The notes beneath the pieces were generated by a model. The model made no database searches and had not been told where the DNA came from. It saw nothing but the letters and a program-made list of their open reading frames with translations. A DNA stretch of 64,000 nucleotides from Nemertoderma westbladi (lineage: Eukaryota; Animalia; Xenacoelomorpha). The stretch lies in the NCBI GenBank assembly GCA_032718475.1, contig JAUCBJ010006822.1, forward strand, positions 1-64,000, given 5' to 3'. Positions 7,256-52,362 of the stretch are shown in pieces (position 1 is the stretch's first letter; every line of letters begins with the position of its first letter). Position numbers and translations under genes: made by a program.

Positions 7256-7503
7256 TTAAAACTATAGATATAGACTATGCAATGTACTAAACATGGTCAT
7301 TTATTTGTAGTTAGAACTCATCTCATATCCGTATCGTTGCACTCAGCCTGCACACCACACCTGTTCACCAAAATATATAACTTACAACCTTCCTTAGCTG
7401 GTACCGATCAAAATGTGGTATTGTTCAATGCGCTAAAGTTCTCCGTTAAAACTGTCCTGGTAGTTTAAAAACCGGTCTTTGCAAGCTGAGTCCGAATTTC
7501 TAG

Positions 7504-8970
7504 TTAGGAACCGAGAGGTTCATTACTGTAAGAATTGTTAGCTGACTGGCTGACTGGCTGGCTGACTGGCTGGCTGATCTACAGCCAAAACTACTCTAAC
7601 GATTTTGATGAAATTTTCACAGCATCTAGATACCGCGATTCTAAGGTCCCTGGTATGTTCCGCTATTTCGTCCATGAGCCGTGGGCTCGAAAAATGGACA
7701 TAAACGAAAAAACGCCATATGCGCAATGGTAAAATAACACCAATAACAGCTGGTGTCGTGATGAAAAATGGCTTATGTAATGGATTTCTACACAAGGCTT
7801 AGTATAAATCGATGAGGTTGCCAAGATTATTGTACTTAGTACACCCATACTGTTTGTTTAGGCCCTGCACTCTCTGTCAAAGCAAATATTAACTGGTTGA
7901 TTTAGTTTGTGGTTCTACACAAGCTTAGTATAAATCGATGAGGCTGCCAACTGGTTGGTTTAGTTTGCAATCTATTACCGCCTCAGCTGAATAACTCTTC
8001 CCCCTGCTGAATGACTATTAGGTATACCGTGTATCGGCTTCTCCCCTTCAGAACATTGTAAAGGGAATTTACTTTAGTTTACTCTACTGTGCCATTCAGC
8101 TGAATGGATTTGAGCGATTGCCAAGTACAGAGTTGGATCATTCTCTGACCATAGGCAAAGACATCAAATCTTTTTAAAAATATACTTTTTCCATGTTTTT
8201 TTTTCTGAACAAAAATTTCAAAAAAAATTTTTCGTAGCCAGTACTGCCAATCGATTCGCCATCAAAAATAACGCAAAAAATTTTTTTTGCAAAATTTTAA
8301 ATTACTGTAAATTTTTGGCGACTGGGGGGGGGGTCAATTTTTTTCGATCCGCTATAACTCCGGAACGCTTTGTCCAAATTCGATGGGGTTTTCATTTTTC
8401 AACTTAATTCGATGTCCTCTTTCAGCCTATCCATGTTTCGAAACCCCCAAACAGCGCCGTTCAAAAATTATTTTTTTCTAGTTCTAGAATTTTACAAATT
8501 TCAAAAAAGTTGCAGTATTTTATTAACGCCTTTACGGAATTCGATAGCGTTTTCGATTTTTATATTAAACGCAATATCCTGAATCTCACTAGCCTAGTTT
8601 CGCGTCACCAATGCCAAGATTTCATACTTTTGAAGAAAATTTTTCTAGAATAATTTTTATTTAATTACATTTATCGCGATTTCTTATTACTGATTGCACA
8701 TGAATTGATGGAGTTTTCAATTAATTAACTAAACACGATATCGCGCATCGCACCAGCGTGGTTTCGAAATTCCAAAACGAGGTCTTCACTAGTTGCAGGT
8801 CGATTTTGTTCTTGAATTGAGCATCTAATAATAGATCGAATTTATTAATAATTATTGTATGAAATATGATTGTATTTTTAGATAATTATTAGTTCTATAC
8901 TAATTCTCGTTGTCTCTTTTATTTAAAATAAAAAGTCGGTTCCTTATCGGGCCGCTAGGCCCGTCACTAG
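7504..8970 (+). mobile_element. Unit 1, type A (A key, A/T-tract body)
   Basis: 5' TTAGGAACCGAGAGGTTC ... 3' TCGGTTCCTTATCGGGCCGCTAGGCCCGTCACTAG. Confidence 0.9.
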
Positions 8971-10466
8971 TTAGCAAGTCGTTAGACTTGATTACTGTAA
9001 GAATTGTTGACTGACTGACTGGCTGGCTGGCTGGCTGACTGGCTGGCTGATCTACAGCCAAAACTACTCTAACGATTTTGATGAAATTTTCACAGCATCT
9101 AGATACCGCGATTCTAAGGTCCCTGGCATGATCGGCTACTCCGTCCATAGCCTCTGGGCTCGAAAAATAGAGATAAACGAAAAAACGCCATAGGCGCAAT
9201 GGTAAAATAACACCAATGACAGCTGGTGTCCTGATGAAAAATGGCTTATGTAATGCATTTCTACACAAGGCTTAGTAATAAATCGATGAGGTTGCCAAGA
9301 TTATTATACTTAGTACACCCATACTGTTTGTTTAGGCCCTAGGACACTCTGTCAAAGCAAATATTAACTGGTTGATTTAGTTTGTGGTTCTACACAGGCT
9401 TAGTATAAATCGGTGAGGCTGCCAACTGGTTGGTTTAGTTTGCAATCTATTACCGCCTCAGCTGAATAACTCTTCCCCCTGCTGAATGACTGTTAGGTAC
9501 AGGTTATTGGCTACATTAATGCCAACATTAATACAGTGGAAGCTGTATGCTTATAAGGTGGAATGTTTACTCAGCCTTATACTGATACTCTGTAAGGTTA
9601 AGACTAACATTATAGTTTGAAATATAAAAATCACTTATTATTATCTGTATTGGGTTAATAATCACTGTGGCATTCAAAATGTTTTATAGGTGATTGACAT
9701 TTAGTGCAAGCTGAATGACTGTTAGTTACAGAGTACTACAGTACTGCACTCTTATTTTATTTTTAAATCTTTCGTCCAACATTAATACTTTGGAGGTTGT
9801 ATGCTTATAAGGCGAATGTTTACTCAGCTTCATACTGATACACTGTAAGGCTAACACTAACGTTATAGTTTAACACATAAAAATCACTGCTTATTATCTG
9901 TATCAGGTTACATACTGTGGCATTCAAAATGTTTAAATGTTTTATAGGTGATTGATATTTAGTGCAAGCTGAATGACTGTAGGTTACAGAGTACTATTGC
10001 ACTGTATTTTATTTTTAAATCTTTTGGCCAACATTAATACTGTGGAGGCTGTATGCTTATAAGGCGGAATGTTTACTCAGCCTCATACTGATACTCTGTA
10101 AGGCTTACACTAACATTATTGTTTGAAATATAAAAATAACTGCTTATTATCTGTATTGGGTTAATCACTGTGGCATTCAAAATGTTTTGTTAGGTGAATG
10201 ACATTTAGTGGCTAAGATTATTCTCTGTCAGATTCCCTTCACACCATAGGCAAACATTGTTGAGGCTGAGGGAATTTACTTTAGTTTACTCTACTGAGTC
10301 ATTCAGCTGAATGGATTTGAGCAATTGCCAAATTACAGAGTGGGATCTCTCTCTGACCATAGATAAATAACACTTCCCTTCTGAACAAAGGTAAACATTG
10401 TTGAGGGAACTTACCTTTGATTGACGACTTCCGACTTGCTTAACGGCGTCTTGACGCCGTCTCTAG
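8971..10466 (+). mobile_element. Unit 2, type B-long (1496 bp, three internal repeats of about 250 bp)
   Basis: 5' TTAGCAAGTCGTTAGACTTG ... 3' CGACTTGCTTAACGGCGTCTTGACGCCGTCTCTAG; internal repeats start near 9523, 9776 and 10028. Confidence 0.9.
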
Positions 10467-10800
10467 TTAGCAAGTCGTAGGACTTGATTACTGTAAGAAT
10501 TGTTGGCTGATTGACTGGCTGGCTGGCTGGCTGACTGGCTGGCTGGCTGGCTGGCTGATCTACAGCCAAAACTACTCTAACGATTTTGATGAAATTTTCA
10601 CAGCGGCTAGATACCGCGATTCTAAGGTCCCTGGTATGTTCCGCTATTTCGTCCATGAGCCGTGGGCTCGAAAAATAGACATAAACGAAAAAACGCCATA
10701 GGCGCAATGGTAAAATAACACCAATGACAGCTTGTTGATGGAATTTACATTTGATTGATGACTTCCGACTTTCTTAACGGCGTCTTGACGCCGTCTCTAG
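10467..10800 (+). mobile_element. Unit 3, type B-short (334 bp)
   Basis: B ends joined to the core only. Confidence 0.9.
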
Positions 10801-12288
10801 TTAGGAACCGAGAGGTTCATTACTGTAAGAATTGTTGGCTGATTGACTGGCTGGCTGGCTGATCTACAGCCAAAACTACTCTAACGATTTTGATGAAATT
10901 TTCACAGCATCTAGATACCGCGATTCTAAGGTCCCTGGTATGATCGGCTACTCCGTCCATAGCCTCTGGGCTCGAAAAATAGAGATAAACGAAAAAACGC
11001 CATAGACGCAATGGTAAAATAACACCCATGACAGCTGGTGTCCTGATGAAAAATGGCTTATGTAATGCATTTCTACACAAGGCTTAGTATAAATCGATGA
11101 GGTTGCCAAGATTATTGTACTTAGTACACCCATACTGTTTGTATAGGCCACCACTCTCTGTCAAAGCAAACATTAACGAGTTGGTTTAGTTTGAAATCTA
11201 ATATCGCCTCAGCTGAATTACTCTTCCCAATGCATTCTATGCGAATATCTCACTCTGCAAAATGTAAGCTGAATGACTCTTACGTACACAGTGAGTTGGC
11301 TACATTAATGCCAACATTATTGCAAAATGTTTTATTGTTGGATTACTCTCTGTCAGTCTCCCCTTCAGAACATTGTATAGGGAATTTACTTTAGTTTACT
11401 CTACTGTGCCATTCAGCTGAATGGATTTGAGCGATTGCCAAGTTACAGAGTTGGATCATTCTCTGACCATAGGCAAAGACATCAAATCTTTTTAAAAATA
11501 TACTTTTTCCATGTTTTTTTTTCTGATCAAAAATTTCAAAAAAAAATTTTTCTTAGCCAGTACTGCCAATCGATTCGCCATCAAAAATAACGCAAAAAAA
11601 TTTTTTTGCAAAATTTTAAATTACTGTAATTTTTGGCGACTGGGGGGGGGTCAATTTTTTTTGATCCGCTATAACTCCGGAACGCTTTGTCCAAATTCGA
11701 TGGGGTTTTCATTTTTCAACTTAATTCGATGTCCTCTTTCAGCCTATCCATGTTTCGAAACCCCAAACAGCGCCGTTCAAAAATAAATTTTTTCTAGTTC
11801 TAGAATTTTACAAATTTCAAAAAAGTTGCAGTATTTTATTAACGCCTTTACGGAATTCGATAGCGTTTTCGATTTTTATATTAAACGCAATATCCTGAAT
11901 CTCACTAGCCTAGTTTCGCGTCACCAATGCCAAGACTTCATACTTTTTGAGGAAAATTTTTCTAGAATAATTTTTATTCAAATTACATTTATCGCGATTT
12001 CTTATTACTGGTTGCACATGAATTGATGGAGTTTTCACTTTATTAACTAAACACGATATCGCGCATCGCACCAGCGTGGTTTCGAAATTCCAAAACGAGG
12101 TCTTCACTAGTTGCAGGTCGAATTTGTTCTAGAATTGAGCATCTAATAATAGATCGAATTTATTAATAATTATTGTATGAAATATGATTGTATTTTTACA
12201 TAATTATTAGTTCTATACTAATTCTCGTTGTTTCTTTTATTTAAAATAAAAAGTCGGTTCCTTATCGGGCCGCTAGGCCCGTCACTAG
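10801..12288 (+). mobile_element. Unit 4, type A
   Basis: A ends; followed by a 12-bp A stub at 12289-12300. Confidence 0.9.
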
Positions 12289-12300
12289 TTAGGAACCGAG

Positions 12301-13796
12301 TTAGCAAGTCGTTAGACTTGATTACTGTAAGAATTGTTGACTGACTGACTGGCTGGCTGGCTGGCTGACTGGCTGGCTGATCTACAGCCAAAACTACTCT
12401 AACGATTTTGATGAAATTTTCACAGCATCTAGATACCGCGATTCTAAGGTCCCTGGCATGATCGGCTACTCCGTCCATAGCCTCTGGGCTCGAAAAATAG
12501 AGATAAACGAAAAAACGCCATAGGCGCAATGGTAAAATAACACCAATGACAGCTGGTGTCCTGATGAAAAATGGCTTATGTAATGCATTTCTACACAAGG
12601 CTTAGTAATAAATCGATGAGGTTGCCAAGATTATTATACTTAGTACACCCATACTGTTTGTTTAGGCCCTAGGACACTCTGTCAAAGCAAATATTAACTG
12701 GTTGATTTAGTTTGTGGTTCTACACAGGCTTAGTATAAATCGGTGAGGCTGCCAACTGGTTGGTTTAGTTTGCAATCTATTACCGCCTCAGCTGAATAAC
12801 TCTTCCCCCTGCTGAATGACTGTTAGGTACAGGTTATTGGCTACATTAATGCCAACATTAATACAGTGGAAGCTGTATGCTTATAAGGTGGAATGTTTAC
12901 TCAGCCTTATACTGATACTCTGTAAGGTTAAGACTAACATTATAGTTTGAAATATAAAAATCACTTATTATTATCTGTATTGGGTTAATAATCACTGTGG
13001 CATTCAAAATGTTTTATAGGTGATTGACATTTAGTGCAAGCTGAATGACTGTTAGTTACAGAGTACTACAGTACTGCACTCTTATTTTATTTTTAAATCT
13101 TTCGTCCAACATTAATACTTTGGAGGTTGTATGCTTATAAGGCGAATGTTTACTCAGCTTCATACTGATACACTGTAAGGCTAACACTAACGTTATAGTT
13201 TAACACATAAAAATCACTGCTTATTATCTGTATCAGGTTACATACTGTGGCATTCAAAATGTTTAAATGTTTTATAGGTGATTGATATTTAGTGCAAGCT
13301 GAATGACTGTAGGTTACAGAGTACTATTGCACTGTATTTTATTTTTAAATCTTTTGGCCAACATTAATACTGTGGAGGCTGTATGCTTATAAGGCGGAAT
13401 GTTTACTCAGCCTCATACTGATACTCTGTAAGGCTTACACTAACATTATTGTTTGAAATATAAAAATAACTGCTTATTATCTGTATTGGGTTAATCACTG
13501 TGGCATTCAAAATGTTTTGTTAGGTGAATGACATTTAGTGGCTAAGATTATTCTCTGTCAGATTCCCTTCACACCATAGGCAAACATTGTTGAGGCTGAG
13601 GGAATTTACTTTAGTTTACTCTACTGAGTCATTCAGCTGAATGGATTTGAGCAATTGCCAAATTACAGAGTGGGATCTCTCTCTGACCATAGATAAATAA
13701 CACTTCCCTTCTGAACAAAGGTAAACATTGTTGAGGGAACTTACCTTTGATTGACGACTTCCGACTTGCTTAACGGCGTCTTGACGCCGTCTCTAG
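12301..13796 (+). mobile_element. Unit 5, type B-long (1496 bp)
   Basis: B ends; appears identical to unit 2. Confidence 0.9.
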
Positions 13797-15406
13797 TTAG
13801 GAACCGAGAGGTTCATTACTGTAAGAATTGCTCGTGGCTGGCTGGCTGGCTGACTGACTGGCTGATCTACAGCCAAAACTACTCTAACGATTTTGATGAA
13901 ATTTTCACAGCGGCTAGATACCGCGATTCTAAGGTCCCTGGAATGTTCCGCTATTTTGTCCATGAGCCGTGGGCTCGAAAAATAGACATAAACGAAAAAA
14001 CGCCATAGGCGCAATGATAAAAACACCAGCTGGCACTCATGAAAAATGCATAGAGATGGCCTAGTAATGCTATTCTATAGGAATGGCCACCTAACAAGGA
14101 AATGCTTTCTCTGCCAAGTATTATCCTCACTCTACAACTCAGACAGTAAGCAAACAAAAGCTGTGGGATTCTAATGTATTACATCATAAGCTGATTGCTC
14201 TCCCAATAGCCCTCACACACTCACTGAATCCAATGAAATCGAATATCTATTAGCTTAATGCGAATAGCTGGTAAGCTGAATGCCATTTTAGTTATTGTGT
14301 ACTGTTGATAGCAGAGTTGACTGCTATGTTGTATGTATTTAATTAAAATAATTTTCGTAGAGGGAAGTTAATTTGGGATTACTTTCTATCAGATGTAAGC
14401 AAAGCTGTTCAATGGGGTGGGTCATGGGACCCAAATATAGTACATTATGCATGGCAAACATTAATAAAATCATTCAGTCAACATGGAGGGTATTTGCTTA
14501 GTTAACTCTACTGTGCGAAAAACGAATTTATAATGTTACCCATACTTCAGGTGAATGAATTTTTAGATATTTGTACTGGAGGCAAGGATTTCTGATATAA
14601 TTAAATATATATTTCGATATTATGTAGTTGCGCCCTTCTAGCAGCACGTGAGATAATCAAGTAATAGACACAATGTTTGACTTTGTCCCTTCAAGCAGCA
14701 CGTGAGTTTTGCTTTGACCCTTCGATATATGTATTTGCGCCCTTCGAGCAGCACGTGAATTACATCAAATAATAGACACATTGTTTAACTTTGTCCCTTC
14801 GAGCAGCACGTGAGTTTTGCTTTGACCCTTCGATATATGTATTTGCGCCCTTCGAGCAGCACGGGGAGTTGACTCAGACCGAGCCGAGCCGAGCCGAGCC
14901 GAGCCGAGCCGAGCCGAGCCGAGCCGAGCCGAGCCGAGCCGAGCCGAGCCGAGCCGAGCCGAGCCGAGCCGAGGCGAGCAAAGCCGAGCCGAGTTGAGCC
15001 GAGCCGAGCCGAGCGGAGCCGAGCCGAGCCGAGCCGAGCCGAGCCGAGCCGAGCCGTGCCGAGCCGAGCCGAGCCGAGCCGAGCCGAGCCGAGCCGAGCC
15101 GAGCCGAGCCGAGCCGAGCCGAGCCGAGCCGAGCCGAGCCGAGCCGAGCCGAGCCGAACCGAGCCGAGCCGAACCGAGCCGAGCCGAGCCGAGCCGAGAC
15201 AAGCCAAGCCAAGCCGAGCCGAGCCGAGCCGAGCCGAGCCGAGCCGAGCCGAGCCGAGCCGAGCCGAGCCGAGCCGAGCCGAACCGAACCAAACCAAACC
15301 GAACCGAGCCGAGCCGAGCCAAATCGTGCAAGACCGAGCCGAGCTCGTTGTCTCTTTTATTTGAAAAAAAATCGGTTCCTTATCGGGCCGCTAGGCCCGT
15401 CACTAG
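13797..15406 (+). mobile_element. Unit 6, type C (A key, CACGTG repeats and (GAGCC)n)
   Basis: A ends with a different body. Confidence 0.9.
14876..15345 (+). repeat. (GAGCC)n pentamer microsatellite inside unit 6
   Basis: Read directly; source of the AEPSR/SARLG ORFs. Confidence 0.98.
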
Positions 15407-16900
15407 TTAGGAACCGAGAGGTTCATTACTGTAAGAATTGTTGGCTGATTGACTGGCTGGCTGACTGGCTGGCTGGCTGGCTGGCTGATCTACAGCCAAA
15501 ACTACTCTAACAATTTTGATGAAATTTTCACAGTGGCTTGATACCGCGATTCGAAGGTCCCTGGTATGTTCCGCTATTTCGTCCATGAGCCGTGGGCTCG
15601 AAAAATAGACATAAACGAAAAAACGCCATTGGTGCAATGGTAAAATATCACCAATAACAGCTGGTGTCGTGATGAAAAATGGCTTATGTAATGGATTTCT
15701 ACACAAGGCTTAGTATAAATCGATGAGGTTGCCAAGATTATTCACTTAGTACACCAATACTGTTTGTTTAGGCCCTATGACACTCTGTCAAAGCAAATAT
15801 TTACTGGTTGGTTTAGTTTGAAATCTATTATTGCCTCAGCTGAATTACTCTTCCCAATGCGCACTCTATGGGAATATCTCCCTCTGCTAATGTAAGCTGA
15901 ATGACTTAAGTACACAGTGTGTTGGCTACATTAATGCCGTTTTATTGTTGGATTACTCTCTGTCAGTCTCCCCTTCAGAACATTGTATAGGGAATTTAAT
16001 TTAGTTTACTCTACTGTGCCATTCAGCTGAATGGATTTGAGCGATTGCCAAGTTACAGAGTTGGATCATTCTCTGACCATAGGCAAAGACATGAAATCTT
16101 TTTAAAAATATACTTTTTCCATGTTTTTTTTTCTGACCAAAAATTTCAAAAAAAAATTTTTCGTAGCCAGTACTGCCAATCGATTCGCCATCAAAAATAA
16201 CGCAAAAATTTTTTTTTGCAAAATTTTAAATTGCTGTAAATTTTTGGCGACTGGGGGGGGGGGTCAATTTTTTTCGATCCGCTATAACTCCGGAACGCTT
16301 TGTCCAAATTCGATGGGGTTTTCATTTTTCAACTTAATTCGACGTCCTCTTTCAGCCTATCCATGTTTCGAAACCCCAAACAGCGCCGTTCAAAAATTGA
16401 TTTTTTCTAGTTCTAGAATTTTACAAATTTCAAAAAAGTTGCAGTATTTTATTAACGCCTTTACGGAATTCGATAGCGTTTTCGATTTTTATATTAAACG
16501 CAATATCCTGAATCTCACTAGCCTAGTTTCGCGTCACCAATGCCAAGACTTCATACTTTTTGAGGAAAATTTTTCTAGAATAATTTTTACTTAATTACAT
16601 TTATCGCGATTTCTTATTACTGCTTGCACATGAATTGATGGAGTTTTCAATTTATTAACTAAACACGATATCGCGCATCGCACCAGCGTGGTTTCGAAAT
16701 TCCAAAACGAGGTCTTCACTAGTTGCAGGTCGATTTTGTTCTAGAATTGAGCAACTAATAATAGATCGAATTTATTAATAATTATTGTATGAAATATGAT
16801 TGTATTTTTACATAATTATTAGTTCTATACTAATTCTCGTTGTCTCTTTTATTTAAAATAAAAAGTCGGTTCCTTATCGGGCCGCTAGGCCCGTCACTAG
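15407..16900 (+). mobile_element. Unit 7, type A
   Basis: A ends and A body. Confidence 0.9.
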
Positions 16901-17234
16901 TTAGCAAGTCGTAGGACTTGATTACTGTAAGAATTGTTGGCTGATTGACTGGCTGGCTGGCTGGCTGACTGGCTGGCTGGCTGGCTGGCTGATCTACAGC
17001 CAAAACTACTCTAACGATTTTGATGAAATTTTCACAGCGGCTAGATACCGCGATTCTAAGGTCCCTGGTATGTTCCGCTATTTCGTCCATGAGCCGTGGG
17101 CTCGAAAAATAGACATAAACGAAAAAACGCCATAGGCGCAATGGTAAAATAACACCAATGACAGCTTGTTGATGGAATTTACATTTGATTGATGACTTCC
17201 GACTTGCTTAACGGCGTCTTGACGCCGTCTCTAG
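16901..17234 (+). mobile_element. Unit 8, type B-short (334 bp)
   Basis: B ends. Confidence 0.9.
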
Positions 17235-18723
17235 TTAGGAACCGAGAGGTTCATTACTGTAAGAATTGCTCGTGACTGACTGACTGACTGGCTGGCTGAT
17301 CTACAGCCAAAACTACTCTAACGATTTTGATGAAATTTTCACAGCGGCTAGATACCGCGATTCTAAGGTCCCTGGTATGTTCCGCTATTTCGTCCATGAG
17401 CCGTGGGCTCGAAAAATAGACATAAACGAAAAAACGCCATAGGCGCAATGGTAAAATAACACCAATAACAGCTGGTGTCGTGATGAAAAATGGCTTATGT
17501 AATGCATTTCTACAGAAGGCTTAGTAATAAATCGATGAGGTTGCCAAGATTATTATACTCAGTACACCCATACTGTTTGTATAGGCCACCACTCTCTGTC
17601 AAAGCAAACATTAACTGGTTGGTTTAGTTTGAAATCTAATATCGCCTCAGCTGAATTACTCTTCCCAATGCAATCTATGGGAATATCTCACTCTGCTAAT
17701 GTAAGCTGAATGACTGTTACGTACACAGTGAGTTGGCTACATTAATGCCAACATTATTGCAAAATGTTTTATTGTTGGATTACTCTCTGTCAGTCTCCCC
17801 TTCAGAACATTGTATAGGGAATTTACTTTAGTTTACTCTACTGTGCCATTCAGCTGAATGGATTTGAGCGATTGCCAAGTTACAGAGTTGGATCATTCTC
17901 TGACCATAGGCAAAGACATCAAATCTTTTTAAAAATATACTTTTTCCATGTTTTTTTTTCTGACCAAAAATTTCAAAAAAAATTTTTCGTAGCCAGTACT
18001 GCCAATCGATTCGCCATCAAAAATAACGCAAAAAATTTTTTTTGCAAAATTTTAAATTACTGTAAATTTTTGGCGACTGGGGGGGGTCAATTTTTTTCGA
18101 TCCGCTATAACTCCGGAACGCTTTGTCCAAATTCGATGGGGTTTTCATTTTTCAACTTAATTCGATGTCCTCTTTCAGCCTATCCATGTTTCGAAACCCC
18201 AAACAGCGCCGTTCAAAAATTAATTTTTTCTAGTTCTAGAATTTTACAAATTTCAAAAAAGTTGCAGTATTTTATTAACGCCTTTACGGAATTCGATAGC
18301 GTTTTCGATTTTTATATTAAACGCAATATCCTGAATCTCACTAGCCTAGTTTCGCGTCACCAATGCCAAGACTTCATACTTTTTGAGGAAAATTTTTCTA
18401 GAATAATTTTTATTTAATTACATTTATCGCGATTTCTTATTACTGGTTGCACATGAATTGATGGAGTTTTCAATTTATTAACTAAACACGATATCGCGCA
18501 TCGCACCAGCGTGGTTTCGAAATTCCAAAACGAGGTCTTCACTAGTTGCAGGTCGATTTTGTTCTAGAATTGAGCAACTAATAATAGATCGAATTTATTA
18601 ATAATTATTGTATGAAATATGATTGTATTTTTACATAATTATTAGTTCTATACTAATTCTCGTTGTCTCTTTTATTTAAAATAAAAAGTCGGTTCCTTAT
18701 CGGGCCGCTAGGCCCGTCACTAG
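17235..18723 (+). mobile_element. Unit 9, type A
   Basis: A ends and A body. Confidence 0.9.
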
Positions 18724-20368: not shown

Positions 20369-20701
20369 TTAGCAAGTCGTAGACTTGATTACTGTAAGAA
20401 TTGTTGGCTGATTGACTGGCTGGCTGGCTGGCTGACTGGCTGGCTGGCTGGCTGGCTGATCTACAGCCAAAACTACTCTAACGATTTTGATGAAATTTTC
20501 ACAGCGGCTAGATACCGCGATTCTAAGGTCCCTGGTATGTTCCGCTATTTCGTCCATGAGCCGTGGGCTCGAAAAATAGACATAAACGAAAAAACGCCAT
20601 AGGCGCAATGGTAAAATAACACCAATGACAGCTTGTTGATGGAATTTACATTTGATTGATGACTTCCGACTTGCTTAACGGCGTCTTGACGCCGTCTCTA
20701 G
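20369..20701 (+). mobile_element. Unit 11, type B-short
   Basis: B ends. Confidence 0.9.
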
Positions 20702-20992
20702 TTAGGAACCGAGAGGTTCATTACTGTAAGAATTGTTTGCTGATTGACTGACTGGCTGACTGACTGGCTGGCTGATCTACAGCCAAAACTACTCTAACGA
20801 TTTTGATGAAATTTTCACAGCGGCTAGATACCGCGATTCTAAGGTCCCTGATATGTTCCGCTATTTCGTCCATGAGCCGTGGGCTCGAAAAATAGAGATA
20901 AACGAAAAAACGCCATAGGCGCAATGGTAAAATAACACACCCATGACAGCTGGTGTCCTGATGAAAAATGGCTTATGTAATGCATTTCTACA

Positions 20993-32861: not shown

Positions 32862-35800
32862 TTAGGAACCGAGAGGTTCATTACTGTAAGAATTGCTCGT
32901 GACTGACTGACTGACTGGCTGGCTGAGCTGATCTACAGCCAAAACTACTCTAACGATTTTGATGAAATTTTCACAGCGGCTAGATACCGCGATTCTAAGG
33001 TCCCTGGTATGTTCCGCTATTTCGTCCATGAGCCGTGGGCTCGAAAAATGGACATAAACGAAAAAACGCCATAGGCGCAATGGTAAAATAACACCAATAA
33101 CAGCTGGTGTCGTGATGAAAAATGGCTTATGTAATGGATTTCTACACAAGGCTTAGTAACTAGAGACGGCGTCAAGACGCCGTTAAGCAAGTCGGAAGTC
33201 GTCAATCAAAGGTAAGTTCCCTCAACAATGTTTACCTTTGTTCAGAAGGGAAGTGTTATTTATCTATGGTCAGAGAGAGATCCCACTCTGTAATTTGGCA
33301 ATTGCTCAAATCCATTCAGCTGAATGACTCAGTAGAGTAAACTAAAGTAAATTCCCTCAGCCTCAACAATGTTTGCCTATGGTGTGAAGGGAATCTGACA
33401 GAGAATAATCTTAGCCACTAAATGTCATTCACCTAACAAAACATTTTGAATGCCACAGTGATTAACCCAATACAGATAATAAGCAGTTATTTTTATATTT
33501 CAAACAATAATGTTAGTGTAAGCCTTACAGAGTATCAGTATGAGGCTGAGTAAACATTCCGCCTTATAAGCATACAGCCTCCACAGTATTAATGTTGGCC
33601 AAAAGATTTAAAAATAAAATACAGTGCAATAGTACTCTGTAACCTACAGTCATTCAGCTTGCACTAAATATCAATCACCTATAAAACATTTAAACATTTT
33701 GAATGCCACAGTATGTAACCTGATACAGATAATAAGCAGTGATTTTTATGTGTTAAACTATAACGTTAGTGTTAGCCTTACAGTGTATCAGTATGAAGCT
33801 GAGTAAACATTCGCCTTATAAGCATACAACCTCCAAAGTATTAATGTTGGACGAAAGATTTAAAAATAAAATAAGAGTGCAGTACTGTAGTACTCTGTAA
33901 CTAACAGTCATTCAGCTTGCACTAAATGTCAATCACCTATAAAACATTTTGAATGCCACAGTGATTATTAACCCAATACAGATAATAATAAGTGATTTTT
34001 ATATTTCAAACTATAATGTTAGTCTTAACCTTACAGAGTATCAGTATAAGGCTGAGTAAACATTCCACCTTATAAGCATACAGCTTCCACTGTATTAATG
34101 TTGGCATTAATGTAGCCAATAACCTGTACCTAACAGTCATTCAGCAGGGGGAAGAGTTATTCAGCTGAGGCGGTAATAGATTGCAAACTAAACCAACCAG
34201 TTGGCAGCCTCACCGATTTATACTAAGCCTGTGTAGAACCACAAACTAAATCAACCAGTTAATATTTGCTTTGACAGAGTGTCCTAGGGCCTAAACAAAC
34301 AGTATGGGTGTACTAAGTATAATAATCTTGGCAACCTCATCGATTTATTACTAAGCCTTGTGTAGAAATGCATTACATAAGCCATTTTTCATCAGGACAC
34401 CAGCTGTCATTGGTGTTATTTTACCATTGCGCCTATGGCGTTTTTTCGTTTATCTCTATTTTTCGAGCCCAGAGGCTATGGACGGAGTAGCCGATCATGC
34501 CAGGGACCTTAGAATCGCGGTATCTAGATGCTGTGAAAATTTCATCAAAATCGTTAGAGTAGTTTTGGCTGTAGATCAGCCAGCCAGTCAGCCAGCCAGC
34601 CAGCCAGTCAGTCAGTCAACAATTCTTACAGTAATCAAGTCTAACGACTTGCTAATAAATCGATGAGGTTGCCAAGATTATTATACTTAGTATTACACCC
34701 ATACTGTTTGTTTAGGCCCTGCACTCTTTGTCAAAGCAAATATTAACTGGTTGGTTTAGTTTGAAATCTATTATCGCCTCAGCTGAATTACTCTTCCCAA
34801 TGCAATCTATGGGAATATCTCACTCTGCTAATGTAAGCTGAATGACTGTTACTTACACAGTGTAGTTGGCTACATTAATGCCAACATTATTGCAACATGT
34901 TTTATTGTTGGATTACTCTCTGTCAGTCTCCCCTTCAGGAACATTGTATAGGGAATTTACTTTAGTTTACTCTACTGTGCCATTCAGCTGAATGGGTTTG
35001 AGCGATTGCCAAGTTACAGAGTTGGATCATTCTCTGACCATAGGCAAAGACATGAAATCTTTTTAAAAATATACTTTTTCCATGTTTTTTTTTCTGACCA
35101 AAAATTTCAAAAAAAAAAATTTTCGTAGCCAGTACTGCCAATCGATTCGCCATCAAAAATAACGCAAAAAATTTTTTTTGCAAAATTTTAAATTACTGTA
35201 AATTTTTGGCGACTGGGGGGGGGGTCAATTTTTTTCGATCCGCTATAACTCCGGAACGCTTTGTCCAAATTCGATGGGGTTTTCATTTTTCAACTTAATT
35301 CGATGTCCTCTTTCAGCCTATCCATGTTTCGAAACCCCAAACAGCGCCGTTCAAAAATTAATTTTTTCTAGTTCTAGAATATTACAAATTTCAAAAAAGT
35401 TGCAGTATTTTATTAACGCCTTTACGGAATTCGATAGCGTTTTCGATTTTTATATTAAACGCAATATCCTGAATCTCACGAGCCTAGTTTCGCGTCACCA
35501 ATGCCAAGACTTCATACTTTTTGAGGAAAATTTTTCTAGAATAATTTTTATTTAATTACATTTATCGCGATTTCTTATTACTGGTTGCACATGAATTGAT
35601 GGAGTTTTAAATTTATTAACTAAACACGATATCGCGCATCGCACCAGCGTGGTTTCGAAATTCCAAAACAAGGTCTTCACTAGTTGCAGGTCGATTTTGT
35701 TCTAGAATTGAGCAACTTTACTTTACTTTTACTTTTAACTAATAATGGATCGAATTTATTAATAATTATTGTACAGTATGAAATATGATTGTATTTTTAG

Positions 35801-35889
35801 ATAATTATTAGTTCTATACTAATTCTCGTTGTCTCTTTTATTTAAAATAAAAAGTCGGTTCCTTATCGGGCCGCTAGGCCCGTCACTAG
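32862..35889 (+). mobile_element. Unit 18, type A, interrupted by an inverted B-long copy
   Basis: Removing 33160-34655 restores GCTTAGTAA|TAAATCG. Confidence 0.9.
33160..34655 (-). mobile_element. Inverted complete B-long element (1496 bp) nested in unit 18
   Basis: Begins CTAGAGACGGCGTCAAGACGCCGT and ends CTAACGACTTGCTAA; no TSD. Confidence 0.93.
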
Positions 35890-37379
35890 TTAGGAACCGA
35901 GAGGTTCATTACTGTAAGAATTGCTTGTGGCTGACTGACTGACTGACTGACTGATCTACAGCCAAAACTACTCTAACGATTTTGATGAAATTTTCACAGC
36001 GGCTAGATACCGCGATTCTAAGGTCCCTGGTATGTTCCGCTATTTCGTCCATGAGCCGTGGGCTCGAAAAATAGATATAAACGAAAAAACGCCATAGGCG
36101 CAATGGTAAAATAACACCAATAACAGCTGGTGTCCTGGTGAAAAATGGCTTATGTAATGCATTTCTACACAAGGCTTAGTAATAAATCGATGAGGTTGCC
36201 AAGATTATTATACTCAGTACACCCATACTGTTTGTATAGGCCACCACTCTCTGTCAAAGCAAATATTAACTGGTTGGTTTAGTTTGAAATCTAATATCGC
36301 CTCAGCTGAATTACTCTTCCCAATGCATTCTATGGGAATATCTCACTCTGCTAATGTAAGCTGAATGACTTTACGTACACAGTGTGTTGGCTACATTAAT
36401 GCCAACATTATTGCAAAATGTTTTATTGTTGGATTACTCTCTGTCAGTCTCCCCTTCAGAACATTGTATAGGGAATTTACTTTAGTTTACTCTACTGTGC
36501 CATTCAGCTGAATGGATTTGAGCGATTGCCAAGTTACAGAGTTGGATCATTCTCTGACCATAGGCAAAGACATCAAATCTTTTTAAAAATATACTTTTTC
36601 CATGTTTTTTTTTCTGACCAAAAATTTCAAAAAAAAATTTTTCGTAGCCAGTACTGCCAATCGATTCGCCATCAAAAATAACGCAAAAAATTTTTTTTGC
36701 AAAATTTTAAATTACTGTAAATTTTTGGCGACTGGGGGGGGGTCAATTTTTTTCGATCCGCTATAACTCCGGAACGCTTTGTCCAAATTCGATGGGGTTT
36801 TCATTTTTCAACTTAATTCGATGTCCTCTTTCAGCCTATCCATGTTTCGAAACCCCAAACAGCGCCGTTCAAAAATTAATTTTTTCTAGTTCTAGAATTT
36901 TACAAATTTCAAAAAAGTTGCAGTATTTTATTAACGCCTTTACGGAATTCGATAGCGTTTTCGATTTTTATATTAAACGCAATATCCTGAATCTCACTAG
37001 CCTAGTTTCGCGTCACCAATGCCAAGACTTCATACTTTTTGAGGAAAATTTTTCTAGAATAATTTTTATTTAATTACATTTATCGCGATTTCTTATTACT
37101 GGTTGCACATGAATTGATGGAGTTTTCAATTTATTAACTAAACACGATATCGCGCATCGCACCAGCGTGGTTTCGAAATTCCAAAACGAGGTCTTCACTA
37201 GTTGCAGGTCGATTTTGTTCTAGAATTGAGCAACTAATAATAGATCGAATTTATTAATAATTATTGTATGAAATATGATTGTATTTTTACATAATTATTA
37301 GTTCTATACTAATTCTCGTTGTCTCTTTTATTTAAAATAAAAAGTCGGTTCCTTATCGGGCCGCTAGGCCCGTCACTAG
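35890..37379 (+). mobile_element. Unit 19, type A
   Basis: A ends and A body. Confidence 0.9.
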
Positions 37380-38888
37380 TTAGGAACCGAGAGGTTCATT
37401 ACTGTAAGAATTGCTCGAGACTGGCTGGCTGGCTGGCTGGCTGACTGACTGACTGACTAATCTACAGCCAAAACTACTCTAACGATTTTGATGAAATTTT
37501 CACAGCGGCTAGATACCGCGATTCTAAGGTCCCTGGTATGTTCCGCTATTTCGTCCATGAGCCGTGGGCTCGAAAAATAGACATAAACGAAAAAACGCCA
37601 TAGGCGCAATGGTAAAATAACACCCATGACAGCTGGTGTCGTGATGAAAAATGGCTTATGTAATGCATTTCTACAGAAGGCTTAGTAATAAATCGATGAG
37701 GTTGCCAAGATTATTATACTCAGTACACCCATACTGTTTGTATAGGCCACCACTCTCTGTCAAAGCAAACATTATGAACTGGTTGGTTTAGTTTGAAATC
37801 TAATATCGCCTCAGCTGAATTACTCTTCCCAATGCAATCTATGGTAATATCTCACTCTGCTAATGTAAGCTGAATGACTGTTACGTACACAGTGAGTTGG
37901 CTACATTAATGCCAACATTATTGCAAAATGTTTTATTGTTGGATTACTCTCTGTCAGTCACCCCTTCAGAACATTGTATAGGGAATTTACTTTAGTTTAC
38001 TCTACTGTGCCATTCAGCTGAATGGATTTGAGCGATTGCCAAGTTACAGAGTTGGATCATTCTCTGACCATAGGCAAAGACATCAAATCTTTTTAAAAAT
38101 ATACTTTTTCCATGTTTTTTTTCTGACCAAAAATTTCAAAAAAAAATTTTTCGTAGCCAGTACTGCCAATCGATTCGCCATCAAAAATAACGCAAAAAAT
38201 TTTTTTTGCAAAATTTTAAATTACTGTAAATTTTTGGCGACTGGGGGGGGGTCAATTTTTTTCGATCCGCTATAACTCCGGAACGCTTTGTCCAAATTCG
38301 ATGGGGTTTTCATTTTTCAACTTAATTAGATGTCCTCTTTCAGCCTATCCATGTTTCCAAACCCCAAACAGCGCCGTTCAAAAAATAATTTTTTCCAGTT
38401 CTAGAATTTTACAAATTTCAAAAAAGTTTCAGTATTTTATTAACGCCTTTACGGAATTCGATAGCGTTTTCGATTTTTATATTAAACGCAATATCCTGAA
38501 TCTCACTAGCCTAGTTTCGCGTCACCAACGCCAAGACTTCATACTTTTTGAGGAAAATTTTTCTAGAATAATTTTTATTTAATTACATTTATCGCGATTT
38601 CTTATTACTGGTTGCACATGAATTGATGGAGTTTTCAATTTATTAACTAAACACGATATCGCGCATCGCACCAGCGTGGTTTCGAAATTCCAAAACGAGG
38701 TCTTCACTAGTTGCAGGTCGATTTTGTTCTAGAATTGAGTAACTAATAATAGATCGAATTTATTAATAATTATTGTATGAAATATGATTGTATTTTTACA
38801 TAATTATTAGTTCTATAATAATTCTCGTTGTCTCTTTTATTTGAAATAAAAAGTCGGTTCCTTATCGGGCCGCTAGGCCCGTCACTAG
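37380..38888 (+). mobile_element. Unit 20, type A
   Basis: A ends and A body. Confidence 0.9.
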
Positions 38889-39222
38889 TTAGCAAGTCGT
38901 AGGACTTGATTACTGTAAGAATTGTTGGCTGATTGACTGGCTGGCTGGCTGGCTGACTGGCTGGCTGGCTGGCTGGCTGATCTACAGCCAAAACTACTCT
39001 AACGATTTTGATGAAATTTTCACAGCGGCTAGATACCGCGATTCTAAGGTCCCTGGTATGTTCCGCTATTTCGTCCATGAGCCGTGGGCTCGAAAAATAG
39101 ACATAAACGAAAAAACGCCATAGGCGCAATGGTAAAATAACACCAATGACAGCTTGTTGATGGAATTTACATTTGATTGATGACTTCCGACTTGCTTAAC
39201 GGCGTCTTGACGCCGTCTCTAG
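38889..39222 (+). mobile_element. Unit 21, type B-short (334 bp)
   Basis: B ends. Confidence 0.9.
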
Positions 39223-40717
39223 TTAGGAACCGAGAGGTTCATTACTGTAAGAATTGTTGGCTGATTGATTGACTGGCTGGCTGACTGACTGATCTACAGC
39301 CAAAACTACTCTAACGATTTTGATGAAATTTTCACAGCATCTAGATACCGCGATTATAAGGTCCCTGGTATGTTCCGCTATTTCGTCCATGAGCCGTGGG
39401 CTCGAAAAATAGACATAAACGAAAAAACGCCATAGGCGCAATGGTAAAATAACACCAATAACAGCTGGTGTCGTGCTGAAAAATGGCTTATGTAATGCAT
39501 TTCTACAGAAGGCTTAGTAATAAATCGATGAGGTTGCCAAGATTATTATACTCAGTACACCCATACTGTTTGTATAGGCCACCACTCTCTGTCAAAGCAA
39601 ACATTAACTGGTTGGTTTAGTTTGAAATCTAATATCGCCTCAGCTGAATTACTCTTCCCAATGCAATCTATGGGAATATCTCACTCTGCTAATGTAAGCT
39701 GAATGACTGTTACGTACACAGTGAGTTGGCTACATTAATGCCAACATTATTGCAAAATGTTTTATTGTTGGATTACTCTCTGTCAGTCTCCCCTTCAGAA
39801 CATTGTATAGGGAATTTACTTTAGTTTACTCTACTGTGCCATTCAGCTGAATGGATTTGAGCGATTGCCAAGTTACAGAGTTGGATCATTCTCTGACCAT
39901 AGGCAAAGACATCAAATCTTTTTAAAAATATACTTTTTCCATGTTTTTTTTTCTGACCAAAAATTTCAAAAAAAATTTTTTCGTAGCCAGTACTGCCAAT
40001 CGATTCGCCATCAAAAATAACGCAAAAAATTTTTTTTGCAAAATTTTAAATTACTGTAAATTTTTGGCGACTGGGGGGGGTCAATTTTTTTCGATCCGCT
40101 ATAACTCCGGAACGCTTTGTCCAAATTCGATGGGGTTTTCATTTTTCAACTTAATTCGATGTCCTCTTTCAGCCTATCCATGTTTCGAAACCCCAAACAG
40201 CGCCGTTCAAAAATTAATTTTTTCTAGTTCTAGAATTTTACAAATTTCAAAAAAGTTGCAGTATTTTATTAACGCCTTTACGGAATTCGATAGCGTTTTC
40301 GATTTTTATATTAAACGCAATATCCTGAATCTCACTAGCCTAGTTTCGCGTCACCAATGCCAAGACTTCATACTTTTTGAGGAAAATTTTTCTAGAATAA
40401 TTTTTATTTAATTACATTTATCGCGATTTCTTATTACTGGTTGCACATGAATTGATGGAGTTTTCAATTTATTAACTAAACACGATATCGCGCATCGCAC
40501 CAGCGTGGTTTCGAAATTCCAAAACGAGGTCTTCACTAGTTGCAGGTCGATTTTGTTCTAGAATTGAGCAACTAATAATAGATCGAATTTATTAATAATT
40601 ATTGTATGAAATATGATTGTATTTTTACATAATTATTAGTTCTATACTAATTCTCGTTGTCTCTTTTATTTAAAATAAAAAGTCGGTTCCTTATCGGGCC
40701 GCTAGGCCCGTCACTAG
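39223..40717 (+). mobile_element. Unit 22, type A
   Basis: A ends and A body. Confidence 0.9.
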
Positions 40718-42223
40718 TTAGGAACCGAGAGGTTCATTACTGTAAGAATTGCTCGAGACTGGCTGGCTGGCTGGCTGACTGACTGACTGACTGATCTACA
40801 GCCAAAACTACTCTAACGATTTTGATGAAATTTTCACAGCGGCTAGATACCGCGATTCTAAGGTGCCTGGTATGTTCCGCTATTTTGTCCATGAGCCGTG
40901 GGCTCGAAAAATAGACATAAACGAAAAAACGCCATAGGCGCAATGGTAAAATAACACCAATAACAGCTGGTGTCGTGATGAAAAATGGCTTATGTAATGC
41001 ATTTCTACAGAAGGCTTAGTAATAAATCGATGAGGTTGCCAAGATTATTATACTCAGTACACCCATACTGTTTGTATAGGCCACCACTCTCTGTCAAAGC
41101 AAACATTATTAACTGGTTGGTTTAGTTTGAAATCTAATATCGCCTCAGCTGAATTACTCTTCCCAATGCCATCTATGGGAATATCTCACTCTGCTAATGT
41201 AAGCTGAATGACTGTTACGTACACAGTGAGTTGGCTACATTAATGCCAACATTATTGCAAAATGTTTTATTGTTGGATTACTCTCTGTCAGTCATCCCCT
41301 TCAGAACATTGTATAGGGAGTTTACTTTAGTTTACTCTACTGTGCCATTCAGCTGAATGGATTTGAGCGATTGCCAAGTTACAGAGTTGGATCATTCTCT
41401 GACCATAGGCAAAGACATCAAATCTTTTTAAAAATATACTTTTTCCATGTTTTTTTTTCTGACCAAAAATTTCAAAAAAAAATTTTTCGTAGCCAGTACT
41501 GCCAATCGATTCGCCATCAAAAATAACGCAAAAAATTTTTTTTGCAAAATTTTAAATTACTGTAAATTTTTGGCGACTGGGGGGGGTCAATTTTTTTCGA
41601 TCCGCTATAACTCCGGAACGCTTTGTCCAAATTCGATGGGGTTTTCATTTTTCAACTTAATTCGATGTCCTCTTTCAGCCTATCCATGTTTCGAAACCCC
41701 AAACAGCGCCGTTCAAAAATTAATTTTTTCTAGTTCTAGAATTTTACAAATTTCAAAAAAGTTGCAGTATTTTATTAACGCCTTTACGGAATTCGATAGC
41801 GCTTTCGATTTTTATATTAAACGCAATATCCTGAATCTCACTAGCCTAGTTTCGCGTCACCAATGCCAAGACTTCATACTTTTTGAGGAAAATTTTTCTA
41901 GAATAATTTTTATTGAATTACATTTATCGCGATTTCTTATTACTGGTTGCACATGAATTGATGGAGTTATCAATTTATTAACTAAACAGGATATCGCGCA
42001 TCGCACCAGCGTGGTTTCGAAATTCCAAAACGAGGTCTTCACTAGTTGCAGGTCGATTTTGTTCTAGAATTGAGCAACTAATAATAGATCGAATTTATTA
42101 ATAATTATTGTATGAAATATGATTGTATTTTTACATAATTATTAGTTCTATACTAATTCTCGTTGTCTCTTTTATTTAAAATAAAAAGTCGGTTCCTTAT
42201 CGGGCCGCTAGGCCCGTCACTAG
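40718..42223 (+). mobile_element. Unit 23, type A
   Basis: A ends and A body. Confidence 0.9.
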
Positions 42224-43198
42224 TTAGGAACCGAGAGGTTCATTACTGTAAGAATTGCTTGTGGCTGACTGACTGACTGACTGACTGATCTACAGCCAAA
42301 ACTACTCTAACGATTTTGATGAAATTTTCACAGCGGCTAGATACCGCGATTCTAAGGTCCCTGGTATGTTCCGCTATTTCGTCCATGAGCCGTGGGCTCG
42401 AAAAATAGATATAAACGAAAAAACGCCATAGGCGCAATGGTAAAATAACACCAATAACAGCTGGTGTCCTGGTGAAAAATGGCTTATGTAATGCATTTCT
42501 ACACAAGGCTTAGTAATAAATCGATGAGGTTGCCAAGATTATTATACTCAGTACACCCATACTGTTTGTATAGGCCACCACTCTCTGTCAAAGCAAATAT
42601 TAACTGGTTGGTTTAGTTTGAAATCTAATATCGCCTCAGCTGAATTACTCTTCCCAATGCATTGTATGGGAATATCTCATCTGCTAATGTAAGCTGAATG
42701 ACTTAGGTACACAGTGTGTTGGCTACATTAATGCCAACATTATTGCAAAATGTTTTATTGTTTGATTACTCTCTGTCAGTCTCCCCTTCAGAACATTCTA
42801 TAGGGAATTTACTTTAGTTTACTCTACTGTGCCATTCAGCTGAATGGATTTGAGCGATTGCCAAGTTACAGAGTTGGATCATTCTCTGACCATAGGCAAA
42901 GACAAATCTTTTTAAAAATATACTTTTTCCATGTTTTTTTTTCTGACCAAAAATTTCAAAAAGAAATTTTTCGTAGCCAGTACTGCCAATCGATTCGCCA
43001 TCAAAAATAACGCAAAAAATTTTTTTTGCAAAATTTTAAATTACTGTAAATTTTTGGCGACTGGGGGGGGTCAATTTTTTTCGATCCGCAATAACTCCGG
43101 AACGCTTTGTCCATTATTAGTTCTATACTAATTCTCGTTGTCTCTTTTATTTAAAATAAAAAGTCGGTTCCTTATCGGGCCGCTAGGCCCGTCACTAG
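42224..43198 (+). mobile_element. Unit 24, type A with an internal deletion of about 0.5 kb
   Basis: ACGCTTTGTCC is fused to ATTATTAGTTCTATAC near 43112; both ends intact. Confidence 0.88.
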
Positions 43199-44519
43199 TT
43201 AGCAAGTCGTTAGACTTGATTACTGTAAGAAAAAAAAGCTACTGGCTACTGGCTACTGACCTAGAGCAAAAACGGCTCTAACGATTTTGATGAAATTTTG
43301 CATGGACCATGAAAATGGATTTCTAAGGGTACTTGTGAAATCGCGGTTTAAATTGAAACATCTCAACTTGTTTTATTTCGAAAAATAGCCCCAAAACACT
43401 AAAATTGCCATAGGCGCAATGATAAAACACCAGCTGGCACTCATGAAAAATGTATAGAGATGGCCTGGTAATGCATTCAATAGTAAGGGCAACTAACAAA
43501 GAAGTACTTTCTCTGCCAAGTTTTATTATCACTCTACTATACAACCCAGACCGACAGTAAGCAAACATTAACTCATTTAGCTATGGCTATTACAAACTCA
43601 GCTGAATAACTCTTCCCAATGCATCCTTGCTATGTTAATTAATTGGCGTGCAAGCTAAATGACTGTTAGTTAAACAGTGTGTTGGCTACACAGTGTATTG
43701 TACTATGCTCTCATCGCATTATTGTTTTATTTTGAAATGTTTGTGCCAACATTAATACTGTGGAGGCTGTATGCTTATAAGGCTGAATATTTACTCAGCC
43801 TCAAAATGATTCTCCATAAGGCTAACATTATTGTTTGAAATATAAAAATATGATATGCAAATTGTATGTATTTAATTCCAAACATATGGAGTAAAATGAA
43901 CAACATGGTTATTAAAAGTTTTACAAAATAAATAAAATAATATATAAAATATTGTGCTATTAAAACGTTTTATTTGGTTGTGGGGGGGGGGGGGGGTCAT
44001 TGGTTTAGGGGTAAATATGTTATAATAATAATATAATAGTTATATTTAATTAATATCGTGGTTTACATTGAACAGTGTAAATTGTTAATCGCGGTTTACA
44101 TTGAAACATCTCAACTTGTTTTATTTATTACAAAAATAAGAACGAATTTGTCTTATCACTTCTTGTGCGCGATTGTATTGAATTCATGATTTGGATTTGG
44201 ATTTGGATTCATGGATTCTGCTGTTATTGTTATTAATTAATTGATACCTCGACTCCTCTCTGAGACTCCGACTACTCTATCCGATAGAATAAAATAATCA
44301 TTTCGCTAACTGCTCTCTATCTTCTATAATCACAACAGCTTTTATAATTCATTAGATGATTACAACATAATAATTATAGTTTGAAGTTGTCTAGGAAAAT
44401 TTTCGTACACCACCGGGACTACCCTCACACTGATTGATTATCAGACAGAACAAAAAGCGTTTACTTGATTCGTACTGTCTCCTACGACTTGCTTCACGGG
44501 CCGCTAGGCCCGTCTCTAG
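43199..44519 (+). mobile_element. Unit 25, divergent type D (B subTIRs, A-type 3' hairpin)
   Basis: 5' TTAGCAAGTCGTTAGACTTG, a (GCTACTG)n microsatellite, diverged core, 3' CGACTTGCTTCACGGGCCGCTAGGCCCGTCTCTAG. Confidence 0.87.
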
Positions 44520-44699
44520 TCTACCTAGTAAAGTTGTCCTTGATTATATCATGCAACATGATTCTCGTTAAATCAATCAAGCCATTAATTAGTTCAACAA
44601 CAGGCGACCAATGCGGGAAACTATCAGTGTCCAAAACAACCTTTATACATAATTAATCTTCCATGTTTGCTTAATGTTTAATGGGTGCTTAATGTTAAA

Positions 44700-52358: not shown

Positions 52359-52362
52359 TTAA

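Follow-up and report, generated by a model that had tools for sequence, protein, structure and literature searches.

A presence/absence-polymorphic 37-kb array of Helentron-type elements in Nemertoderma westbladi points to repeated insertion at end-to-start joints

Introduction

Head-to-tail arrays of Helitrons are usually read as footprints of rolling-circle read-through and used as evidence of mechanism; tandem arrays in plants, bats and flies have been attributed to rolling-circle copying. Pritham and Feschotte (2007) and Xiong et al. (2016) are said to describe tandem Helitron arrays formed by rolling-circle replication. Here we describe a long array that is not explicable in this manner. 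It lies in a 64,000-nucleotide stretch of DNA from Nemertoderma westbladi (assembly GCA_032718475.1, contig JAUCBJ010006822.1, positions 1 to 64,000 of the forward strand; hereafter the window), and consists of Helentron-type elements of two end families, joined end to start between positions 7504 and 44519. As judged from the sequence, its structure rejects both of these origins, duplication as well as read-through, and speaks for repeated insertion at the end-to-start joints.

The closest published case is the maize r1 region, in which Du et al. (2008) found two different Helitrons at an exact CTAG/TC joint and read them as consecutive insertions, with maize lines carrying both, one or neither of them (PMC2267711). 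Self-insertion of Helitrons has been discussed for Fusarium (PMC5148889), and tandem dimers of transposable elements (TEs) formed by double insertion can seed satellites (McGurk and Barbash 2018, PMC5932611). The excerpts of PMC13286980, PMC13404089, PMC13085455, PMC10288648 and PMC5932611 deal with circles, centromeric or telomeric clustering and double insertion, and contain no mixed joint-exact array. Among the hits listed, our literature search likewise showed no long multi-family Helentron array. A wheat study reportedly shows tandem Helitron arrays with interleaved subfamilies; it was not among the 25 listed of 34 search hits, and would lower the novelty of the present array if real.

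Results

Structure of the array

The 8-mer CTAGTTAG has 25 sites in the window (7500-43195), all on the plus strand and none on the minus strand. When the sequence was split at these sites with the cut placed after CTAG, the first unit started at 7504 and the last at 43199, the final element ending at 44519. All 25 units have a 5' subterminal inverted repeat (subTIR), a matching 3' subTIR, a hairpin and CTAG. They lie on the same strand, are non-coding and fall into five types: 15 A (975-1656 bp, nested inserts excluded), 3 B-long (1487-1496 bp), 4 B-short (333-334 bp), 2 C (1610 and 2211 bp) and 1 D (1321 bp). The original prediction, made from the sequence alone, had listed 25 complete forward elements of these types in an irregular order, and the splitting bore out both counts and order. 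Two additional complete elements, n1 and n2, are nested in reverse orientation at non-joint sites inside units u12 and u18, bringing the total to 27.

The joints are exact CTAG/TTAG in 23 of 24 cases, the remaining one containing a 12-nt stub of an A 5' end; the claim that no spacer separates the units thus holds for all joints except this one. Sorted by subTIR family, there are 10 A/A, 7 A/B, 6 B/A and 1 B/B joints. The predicted mixing of families is therefore present, with 13 mixed joints instead of the 12 (6 A/B, 6 B/A) originally counted, because D carries B subTIRs.

The first unit, u01 (type A, 7504-8970), follows a host CTAG at 7500-7503, which is also found in the allele that lacks the array. 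Behind it stand u02 (B-long, 8971-10466, identical to u05 and n2), u03 (B-short, 10467-10800), u04 (A, carrying a B-long core haplotype, 10801-12288), the stub (12289-12300), which equals the first 12 nt of the A and C 5' end, and u05 (B-long, 12301-13796). The type C unit u06 (13797-15406), with A ends, a body of its own and a GAGCC pentamer run, is followed by u07 (A, 15407-16900), u08 (B-short, 16901-17234) and u09 (A, 17235-18723). Two long A variants, u10 (18724-20368) and its nearest relative u12 (20702-24678), are separated by u11 (B-short, 20369-20701); u12 hosts n1, a complete type C element (20993-23313, minus strand) inserted at CTTG^T of the minus strand. Next come u13 (A, 24679-26182), u14 (a B-long variant 26 substitutions from u02, 26183-27669), u15 (A with a B-long core haplotype, 27670-29155), u16 (C, 29156-31366), u17 (A, 31367-32861) and u18 (A, 32862-35889), which hosts n2, a complete B-long element (33160-34655, minus strand) inserted at TTTA^T of the minus strand. 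The row is completed by u19 (A, 35890-37379), u20 (A, 37380-38888), u21 (B-short, identical to u08, 38889-39222), u22 (A, 39223-40717), u23 (A, 40718-42223), u24 (A, 42224-43198), which has a 0.5-kb internal deletion and is 98.7% like u19, and u25 (D, 43199-44519), probably the founder, which pairs B subTIRs with an A-type hairpin. The right host flank (44520-44525) has T as its first base, and in the empty allele adjoins position 7503 directly. Fragments of four unit types used as queries had no match in the window outside the array.

Each unit begins with TTAG and a subTIR core with a nested small hairpin, continues with the shared core, a GACT/GGCT microsatellite and a type-specific body, and closes with the reverse subTIR, a GC-rich stem-loop and CTAG. 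All 27 elements have exact 9-nt subTIR cores, one at +3 and the other ~35 nt short of the 3' end (one 3' copy is mismatched); they are shorter than the published 11-15 bp unless one flanking mismatch is allowed (PMC4067079, PMC11417382). The 3' stem-loops, with 6-8 bp stems and 4-nt loops, fold at all four end types, and 5' hairpins nested with the subTIR, a DINE-1 layout, are present in A and B starts. One end pair is common to A and C, the other subTIR to B-long, B-short and D. Units of types A, B and C have a common core of ~250-650 bp with 84-98% identity and mosaic haplotypes, while D is the most divergent unit, with a core 73-87% identical to the others. Open reading frames (ORFs) within the array are either derived from microsatellites or recurring open frames without ATG.

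Target-site duplication was not seen: the flanks of the empty allele are joined without gain or loss, and removal of n1 and n2 restores the host core, the stub at u05 being the exception. If the ends are taken as TTAG...CTAG, the three insertion sites that can be resolved read G^T, G^T and A^T. One T at the ends can be assigned either way, and shifting the element by one base would give it a terminal T.

On this anatomy, the array units are classed as HINE/DINE-1-like, non-autonomous elements of Helentron/HLE2 type, in agreement with the original prediction of a Helitron2/Helentron anatomy with subTIRs, a 3' hairpin and no target duplication. Shared with published HINE/DINE-1 elements are a subTIR 2 nt from the 5' end, a nested inverted repeat, a conserved core, a microsatellite, a variable body, a 3' subTIR, a 3' stem-loop, the non-coding nature and the lack of target duplication (PMC4067079, PMC11417382). 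In contrast to them, the present units end in CTAG, like HLE1 and proto-Helentron, have resolvable sites (G^T, G^T and A^T) that are not clearly T^T, and form a 25-unit two-family array, a layout not described in the excerpts of the same two papers. Canonical HLE1 Helitrons (5' TC, A^T target, no subTIRs) were rejected as a class, since the units start with TTAG and have subTIRs, having only the hairpin and CTAG in common with that group.

Several details of individual units were also recorded. Units u01, u04, u10, u12 and u15 are A-ended and carry B-long core haplotypes or up to ~650 bp of the B-long 5' body; the families thus exchange internal sequence while matched ends are kept. The GAGCC run of type C, variable in length and located just inside the 3' end (14878-15345; also in n1 and u16), gives rise to long repetitive ORFs. 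The stub copies the first 12 bases of the A-type start found on either side of u05, and ends in CGAG, one base off CTAG.

Presence/absence polymorphism

Alleles were checked in public contigs of sequencing runs, six of the seven listed runs containing part of the left end. Runs X1 and X3 stem from a single sample, S1, of the same coded organism, and X2 may be the source of the assembly. In both X1 and X3, one contig spans 44515-44760 and then matches window positions 7469-7498 at 29 of 30 bases; it is the sole contig over 44530-44700 in these runs. Its structure is left flank, a single CTAG and right flank (CTAG^T), with nothing gained or lost, and its right flank differs from that of the filled allele at 2 of 246 bases. 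The filled allele is represented in X2 by contigs 7157-7529 (left flank to u01) and 44492-44760 (D to right flank), with zero differences.

Since S1 contigs join the left flank to the right flank, the whole array (7504-44519, 25 tandem and 2 nested elements), absent from these contigs, varies as one block between presence and absence, with breaks at the outer joints; no breakpoint inside a unit, which would have spoken against the original prediction, was found at these outer ends. The empty state is presumably ancestral. The contig evidence covers the outer junctions and the empty site, and the inner order of the units is that of the assembly.

Another version of the left flank, also present in X1, is more divergent, with 14 differences and 5 gaps over 7348-7504. 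In contigs of X1 and X2, the left flank near 7362 is joined to an opposite-strand A-type 3' end, which suggests that an allele or a paralog carries a further insertion ~140 bp away from the site of the array.

Unit history

A satellite with a higher-order repeat was considered and rejected: the correlation between d(i,j) and d(i+1,j+1) was -0.008 (p = 0.42), and shared dimers stayed at chance level across four thresholds. Likeness of adjacent units did not exceed that in shuffles (p = 0.79). A rolling-circle homo-concatemer, or read-through of one donor, was rejected as well, as none of the 24 adjacent pairs is near-identical and all seven adjacent A-A pairs differ by 22-90 substitutions; divergence among A units is 0.7-6.6% (91 pairs, 14 full-length units), and almost all of them can be told apart by a microsatellite and substitutions of their own. 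Identical units were found in unlike contexts. Across 1496 bp, u02, u05 and n2 (in reverse) show no difference, and they have unlike neighbours; the four B-short units differ by 0-1 substitutions, yet their neighbours differ; and identical young units are spread from position 2 to 21. As observed for the mixed joints (13 seen, 10.9 expected, p = 0.22), the order of the units is indistinguishable from random.

Start and end match in 27 of 27 elements although core haplotypes cross families, a result that argues against crossing-over within the shared core; with independent ends, the 25 tandem units would all match with a probability of about 6e-7. Because identical units stand in unlike contexts, block duplication is absent and ends are matched throughout, the moving part is, on this comparison of units, taken to be the whole element, with breakpoints at the joints. 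The prediction that independent whole elements, rather than read-through or duplication, account for the joints is therefore upheld.

Position and number of private substitutions were not significantly correlated (rho = -0.35, p = 0.22) in 14 of the 15 A units; u24 was left out, its 25 private substitutions being an alignment artefact at the deletion. With no age polarity detected, the unit order is not readable as a timeline, and the idea of the array as a record of mobilisation events was not sustained.

Target choice

N^T sites number ~22,000 in the array. The 41 CTAG^TT sites found internally on the plus strand have all remained unused. The bare CTAG^TT motif would thus be insufficient for insertion; if the motif alone mattered, the chance of all 24 additions falling at joints would be ~5e-10 under a sequential model. 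The host DNA left of the array ends in CTAG, a context that precedes 30 of 15,995 T positions (0.19%) in the non-array part of the window, both strands counted. The 3' end of D, with a hairpin and CTAG^T and no element start behind it, gained no element after it. Host CTAG at the left edge, together with the lack of any gain at the right end of D, suggests that the acceptor is CTAG followed by a 5' end and that D, the most divergent unit, was the founder, the founder step being a matter of one locus.

Targeting restricted to sites before or after the element's own family was rejected in view of the 13 mixed joints and of five of the eight B-family units being flanked on both sides by A-family ends. 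Since mixed joints are as common as in random order, targeting appears, from the arrangement of the units, blind to family.

Other observations concern sites and joins beyond the row itself. Measured within their host units u12 and u18, the insertion sites of n1 and n2 (20993 and 33160) both fall ~290-300 nt from the start, in the A core and 13 bp from each other, and form a second hot spot; no strong hairpin was found there (-4.1 and -7.7 kcal/mol over 106 nt). Joins of an A end to an A start are also present in X1, in which the locus is empty, and in X4 (organism B), where a 298-nt contig of high identity shows such a join and may represent a related species, contamination or a circle. X4 may be an RNA run and is not taken here as a sign of transcription. 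In one X1 contig (8974 to 8934/8938) the A start behind the joint runs almost directly into an A end, which suggests minimal, ends-only elements of ~50 bp. When contig depths are added up, the A element reaches ~1e5, compared with 30-80 for most of the flank; this value is a depth sum rather than a copy number and points to A as a high-copy family. Exact-pattern scans with a 24-nt core query against metagenome and viral contigs, and with a 22-nt query from the A/D hairpin end against metagenome and GTDB contigs, each gave 0 loci.

Neighbouring sequence

Left of the array, by 550 bp, lies a 535-codon frame (5346-6953, plus strand) that matches a reverse transcriptase domain (RVT_1, E = 9e-37). 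A C run comes after the frame, which is likely a piece of a long interspersed nuclear element (LINE). A 121-codon fragment without a Pfam match (2658-3023, minus strand) presumably resembles hAT transposase. To the right, the stretch 51700-56580 (minus strand) contains an endonuclease ORF (Exo_endo_phos), preceded by a frame of 354 codons and trailed by fragments, and is likely a broken LINE. It is followed by an 880-codon open frame without a Pfam match (57205-59847, plus strand), which overlaps the start of a Pao/BEL-type retrotransposon polyprotein (Peptidase_A17, DUF1759; 59454-64000, plus strand) that runs off the window.

Discussion

Our preferred reading, to which we assign a probability of roughly 0.6, is that the polymorphic row of 25 non-coding Helentron-type elements was built by a RepHel encoded elsewhere, which swapped single circles of either family into existing joints. 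Anatomy, exact joints, mixed families, matched ends, a clean empty allele and the lack of a higher-order period are directly established, and from these we infer the following steps. An element would be copied out as a circle with the junction hairpin-CTAG/TTAG-subTIR. Because a chromosomal joint has the same sequence as the circle junction, RepHel would nick it as it nicks the circle; the incoming strand, its 5' end bound to the enzyme, would then be attacked there by the free CTAG 3'-OH of the upstream resident, while its own CTAG would be sealed to the 5' end of the downstream resident. One unit would be gained without target duplication, and one joint would become two. The first element, probably D, may have landed by chance behind a host CTAG, generating a mimic of the junction at its 5' side, so that growth would proceed only to the left of D. 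Target recognition is likely blind to the subTIR family; for copying out, by contrast, two matching subTIRs are probably required. The stub may have formed when the 3' end of a nicked joint was extended by 12 bases before capture, giving stub, B element and full start; it fits such nick-and-extend, but a deleted A unit would give the same sequence, so either origin is possible and the stub is not proof.

Biochemical precedents exist for parts of this scheme. Helraiser forms circles with a precise end-to-start junction (PMC4778049), the purified enzyme cuts the plus strand exactly at that junction (PMC5876387), and site-specific integration of DNA, directed to origin-type sites of their own, is carried out by the HUH enzymes TrwC and Rep of adeno-associated virus (AAV) (PMC6049929). 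More generally, Helentron-type transposases may prefer chromosomal end-to-start joints irrespective of family, a landing behind host CTAG seeding a self-amplifying array in which each insertion doubles the target; we hold this wider proposal tentatively, at a little less than even odds.

Several findings weigh against the proposed joint insertion. Two of the 27 elements stand at internal sites, three other B-start joins map inside A in contigs, each before T, and contigs that leave a 3' end through T into unlike DNA amount to 15 of 90 in X1, 19 of 73 in X2, 18 of 64 in X3 and 5 of 7 in X5. Joints are thus a hot spot and not the sole target; the suggested self-targeting stands as far as joints probably served repeatedly as insertion points, and fails as an exclusive rule. 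One dimer, u08-u09, resembles u21-u22 in both units, which is within chance (1 seen, 0.24 expected). RepHel was not found among the 7 of 44 ORFs scanned against Pfam, a search limited to the window, and the cited biochemistry concerns an HLE1 enzyme or non-Helitron HUH proteins. Furthermore, 701 insertions from Helraiser retransposition did not cluster near donor sites, these donors not being head-to-tail joints (PMC4778049). Finally, the contigs showed just two alleles, the empty one in a single sample and the filled one in what is possibly the assembly source, with no intermediate; stepwise growth is thus a proposal, and an insertion in a single step is a conceivable alternative.

In such a single step, circles from many donor loci would fuse extrachromosomally at their junctions, and the 37-kb multimer, or large parts of it, would integrate once at CTAG^T. 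The all-or-none alleles and the random-like order of the units agree with this, and the 2 of 246 differences between the flanks of the two alleles imply that the time available was short. Rolling-circle multimers would, however, give adjacent identical copies, of which there are none, 25 donors must have met in one cell lineage, and the nested inserts, the stub and the deletion suggest several events; we consider this scenario unlikely. We are more doubtful still about a related one, in which joint insertion built up the array at a different locus and the whole, from the first 5' to the last 3' end, later reached this site as a single composite copy, with the inner terminators read through. 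Bypass of a 3' end is established for Helraiser (PMC5148889), joints do exist elsewhere in the genome, and a clean all-or-none polymorphism would follow; yet 24 terminators would have to be bypassed and the outer ends are unmatched (A start, B-family end), as against 27 of 27 matched single elements. The host CTAG at the left edge would also remain a 0.19% coincidence, and the question of how joints form would be shifted without being answered.

Another explanation is an ordinary target preference, with insertion before T favoured after CTAG or beside an extruded hairpin and the resident 5' end going unrecognised. All three two-sided sites in the window are indeed ^T, one of the internal ones being CTTG^T, the nested insertions 13 bp apart indicate local hot spots, and HLE2 elements favour T-rich sites (PMC4067079, PMC11417382). 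The 41 unused CTAG^TT sites speak against it, as does the end of D, which offers hairpin and CTAG^T and has no following element, and the internal hot spot lacks a strong hairpin; we regard this explanation as decidedly improbable. Least credible to us, and very improbable, is that the order of rolling-circle tandem copies was changed when unequal crossing-over or conversion took place in the core they share, or that it is an assembly artefact. The shared core, its mosaic haplotypes and an inner order taken from the assembly would allow for it. Core crossovers would, however, yield chimeras with an A start and a B end (0 of 27 seen) and would not create mixed joints, no period is present, nearly every A unit is individually marked, and the outer junctions and the empty site occur in public contigs.

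The empty allele fixes the boundaries of the array, and the locus offers a defined substrate for studying target choice by Helitron-like elements and the start of whole-element tandem arrays. If joints are indeed preferred acceptors, Helitron transposases would have a latent site-specific mode, relevant to the origin of satellites, to large structural polymorphism and to insertion tools; it would represent a eukaryotic HUH route of site-specific integration, involving tens of kilobases within standing variation, with a ready target sequence for directed insertion.

Integrons hold variable cassettes in one orientation with exact joints, and operate through a tyrosine recombinase, attI and attC sites and a promoter, with genes as cargo. 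The array resembles them in the stacking of units in one orientation with exact joints, and differs in having no tyrosine recombinase, attI/attC, promoter or cargo and no detected age polarity, while every joint appears usable. No tyrosine integrase was found beside the array among the scanned ORFs, the neighbouring ones encoding reverse transcriptase, endonuclease and Pao polyprotein, and the original description as integron-like is not supported in the strict sense, the window containing no recombinase gene. In TE double insertion, repeated insertion at one site also makes tandems, but there the duplicated target is kept in the junction, whereas here no host base lies between units (PMC5932611). 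TrwC at oriT and AAV Rep at AAVS1 serve as a working model, since there the nick site of an HUH enzyme, present as a resident copy, is where that enzyme attaches incoming DNA; this is biochemically shown for these systems and proposed here for elements that are not members of them (PMC6049929). With rolling-circle tandem Helitron arrays, the present one has in common perfect end-to-start junctions and a single orientation; those, however, are explained as copies of one donor, while neighbours here are never identical and over half of the joints are of mixed family.

The joining of two elements is thus known, while the scale, the family blindness, the empty allele and the clue to seeding were not found in print. 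The multi-family, junction-precise architecture had been singled out as the notable part, and this is true of its 25-unit scale, a mixed head-to-tail pair having been published (PMC2267711). Like the present units, the two maize r1 Helitrons are different elements that meet at an exact joint of CTAG and 5' end, in their case read as consecutive insertion; they are HLE1 elements and a single case, compared with 25 HLE2-type units, 24 joints and two subTIR families here (PMC2267711). It is this number of joints across two families that makes duplication and motif-only targeting statistically rejectable.

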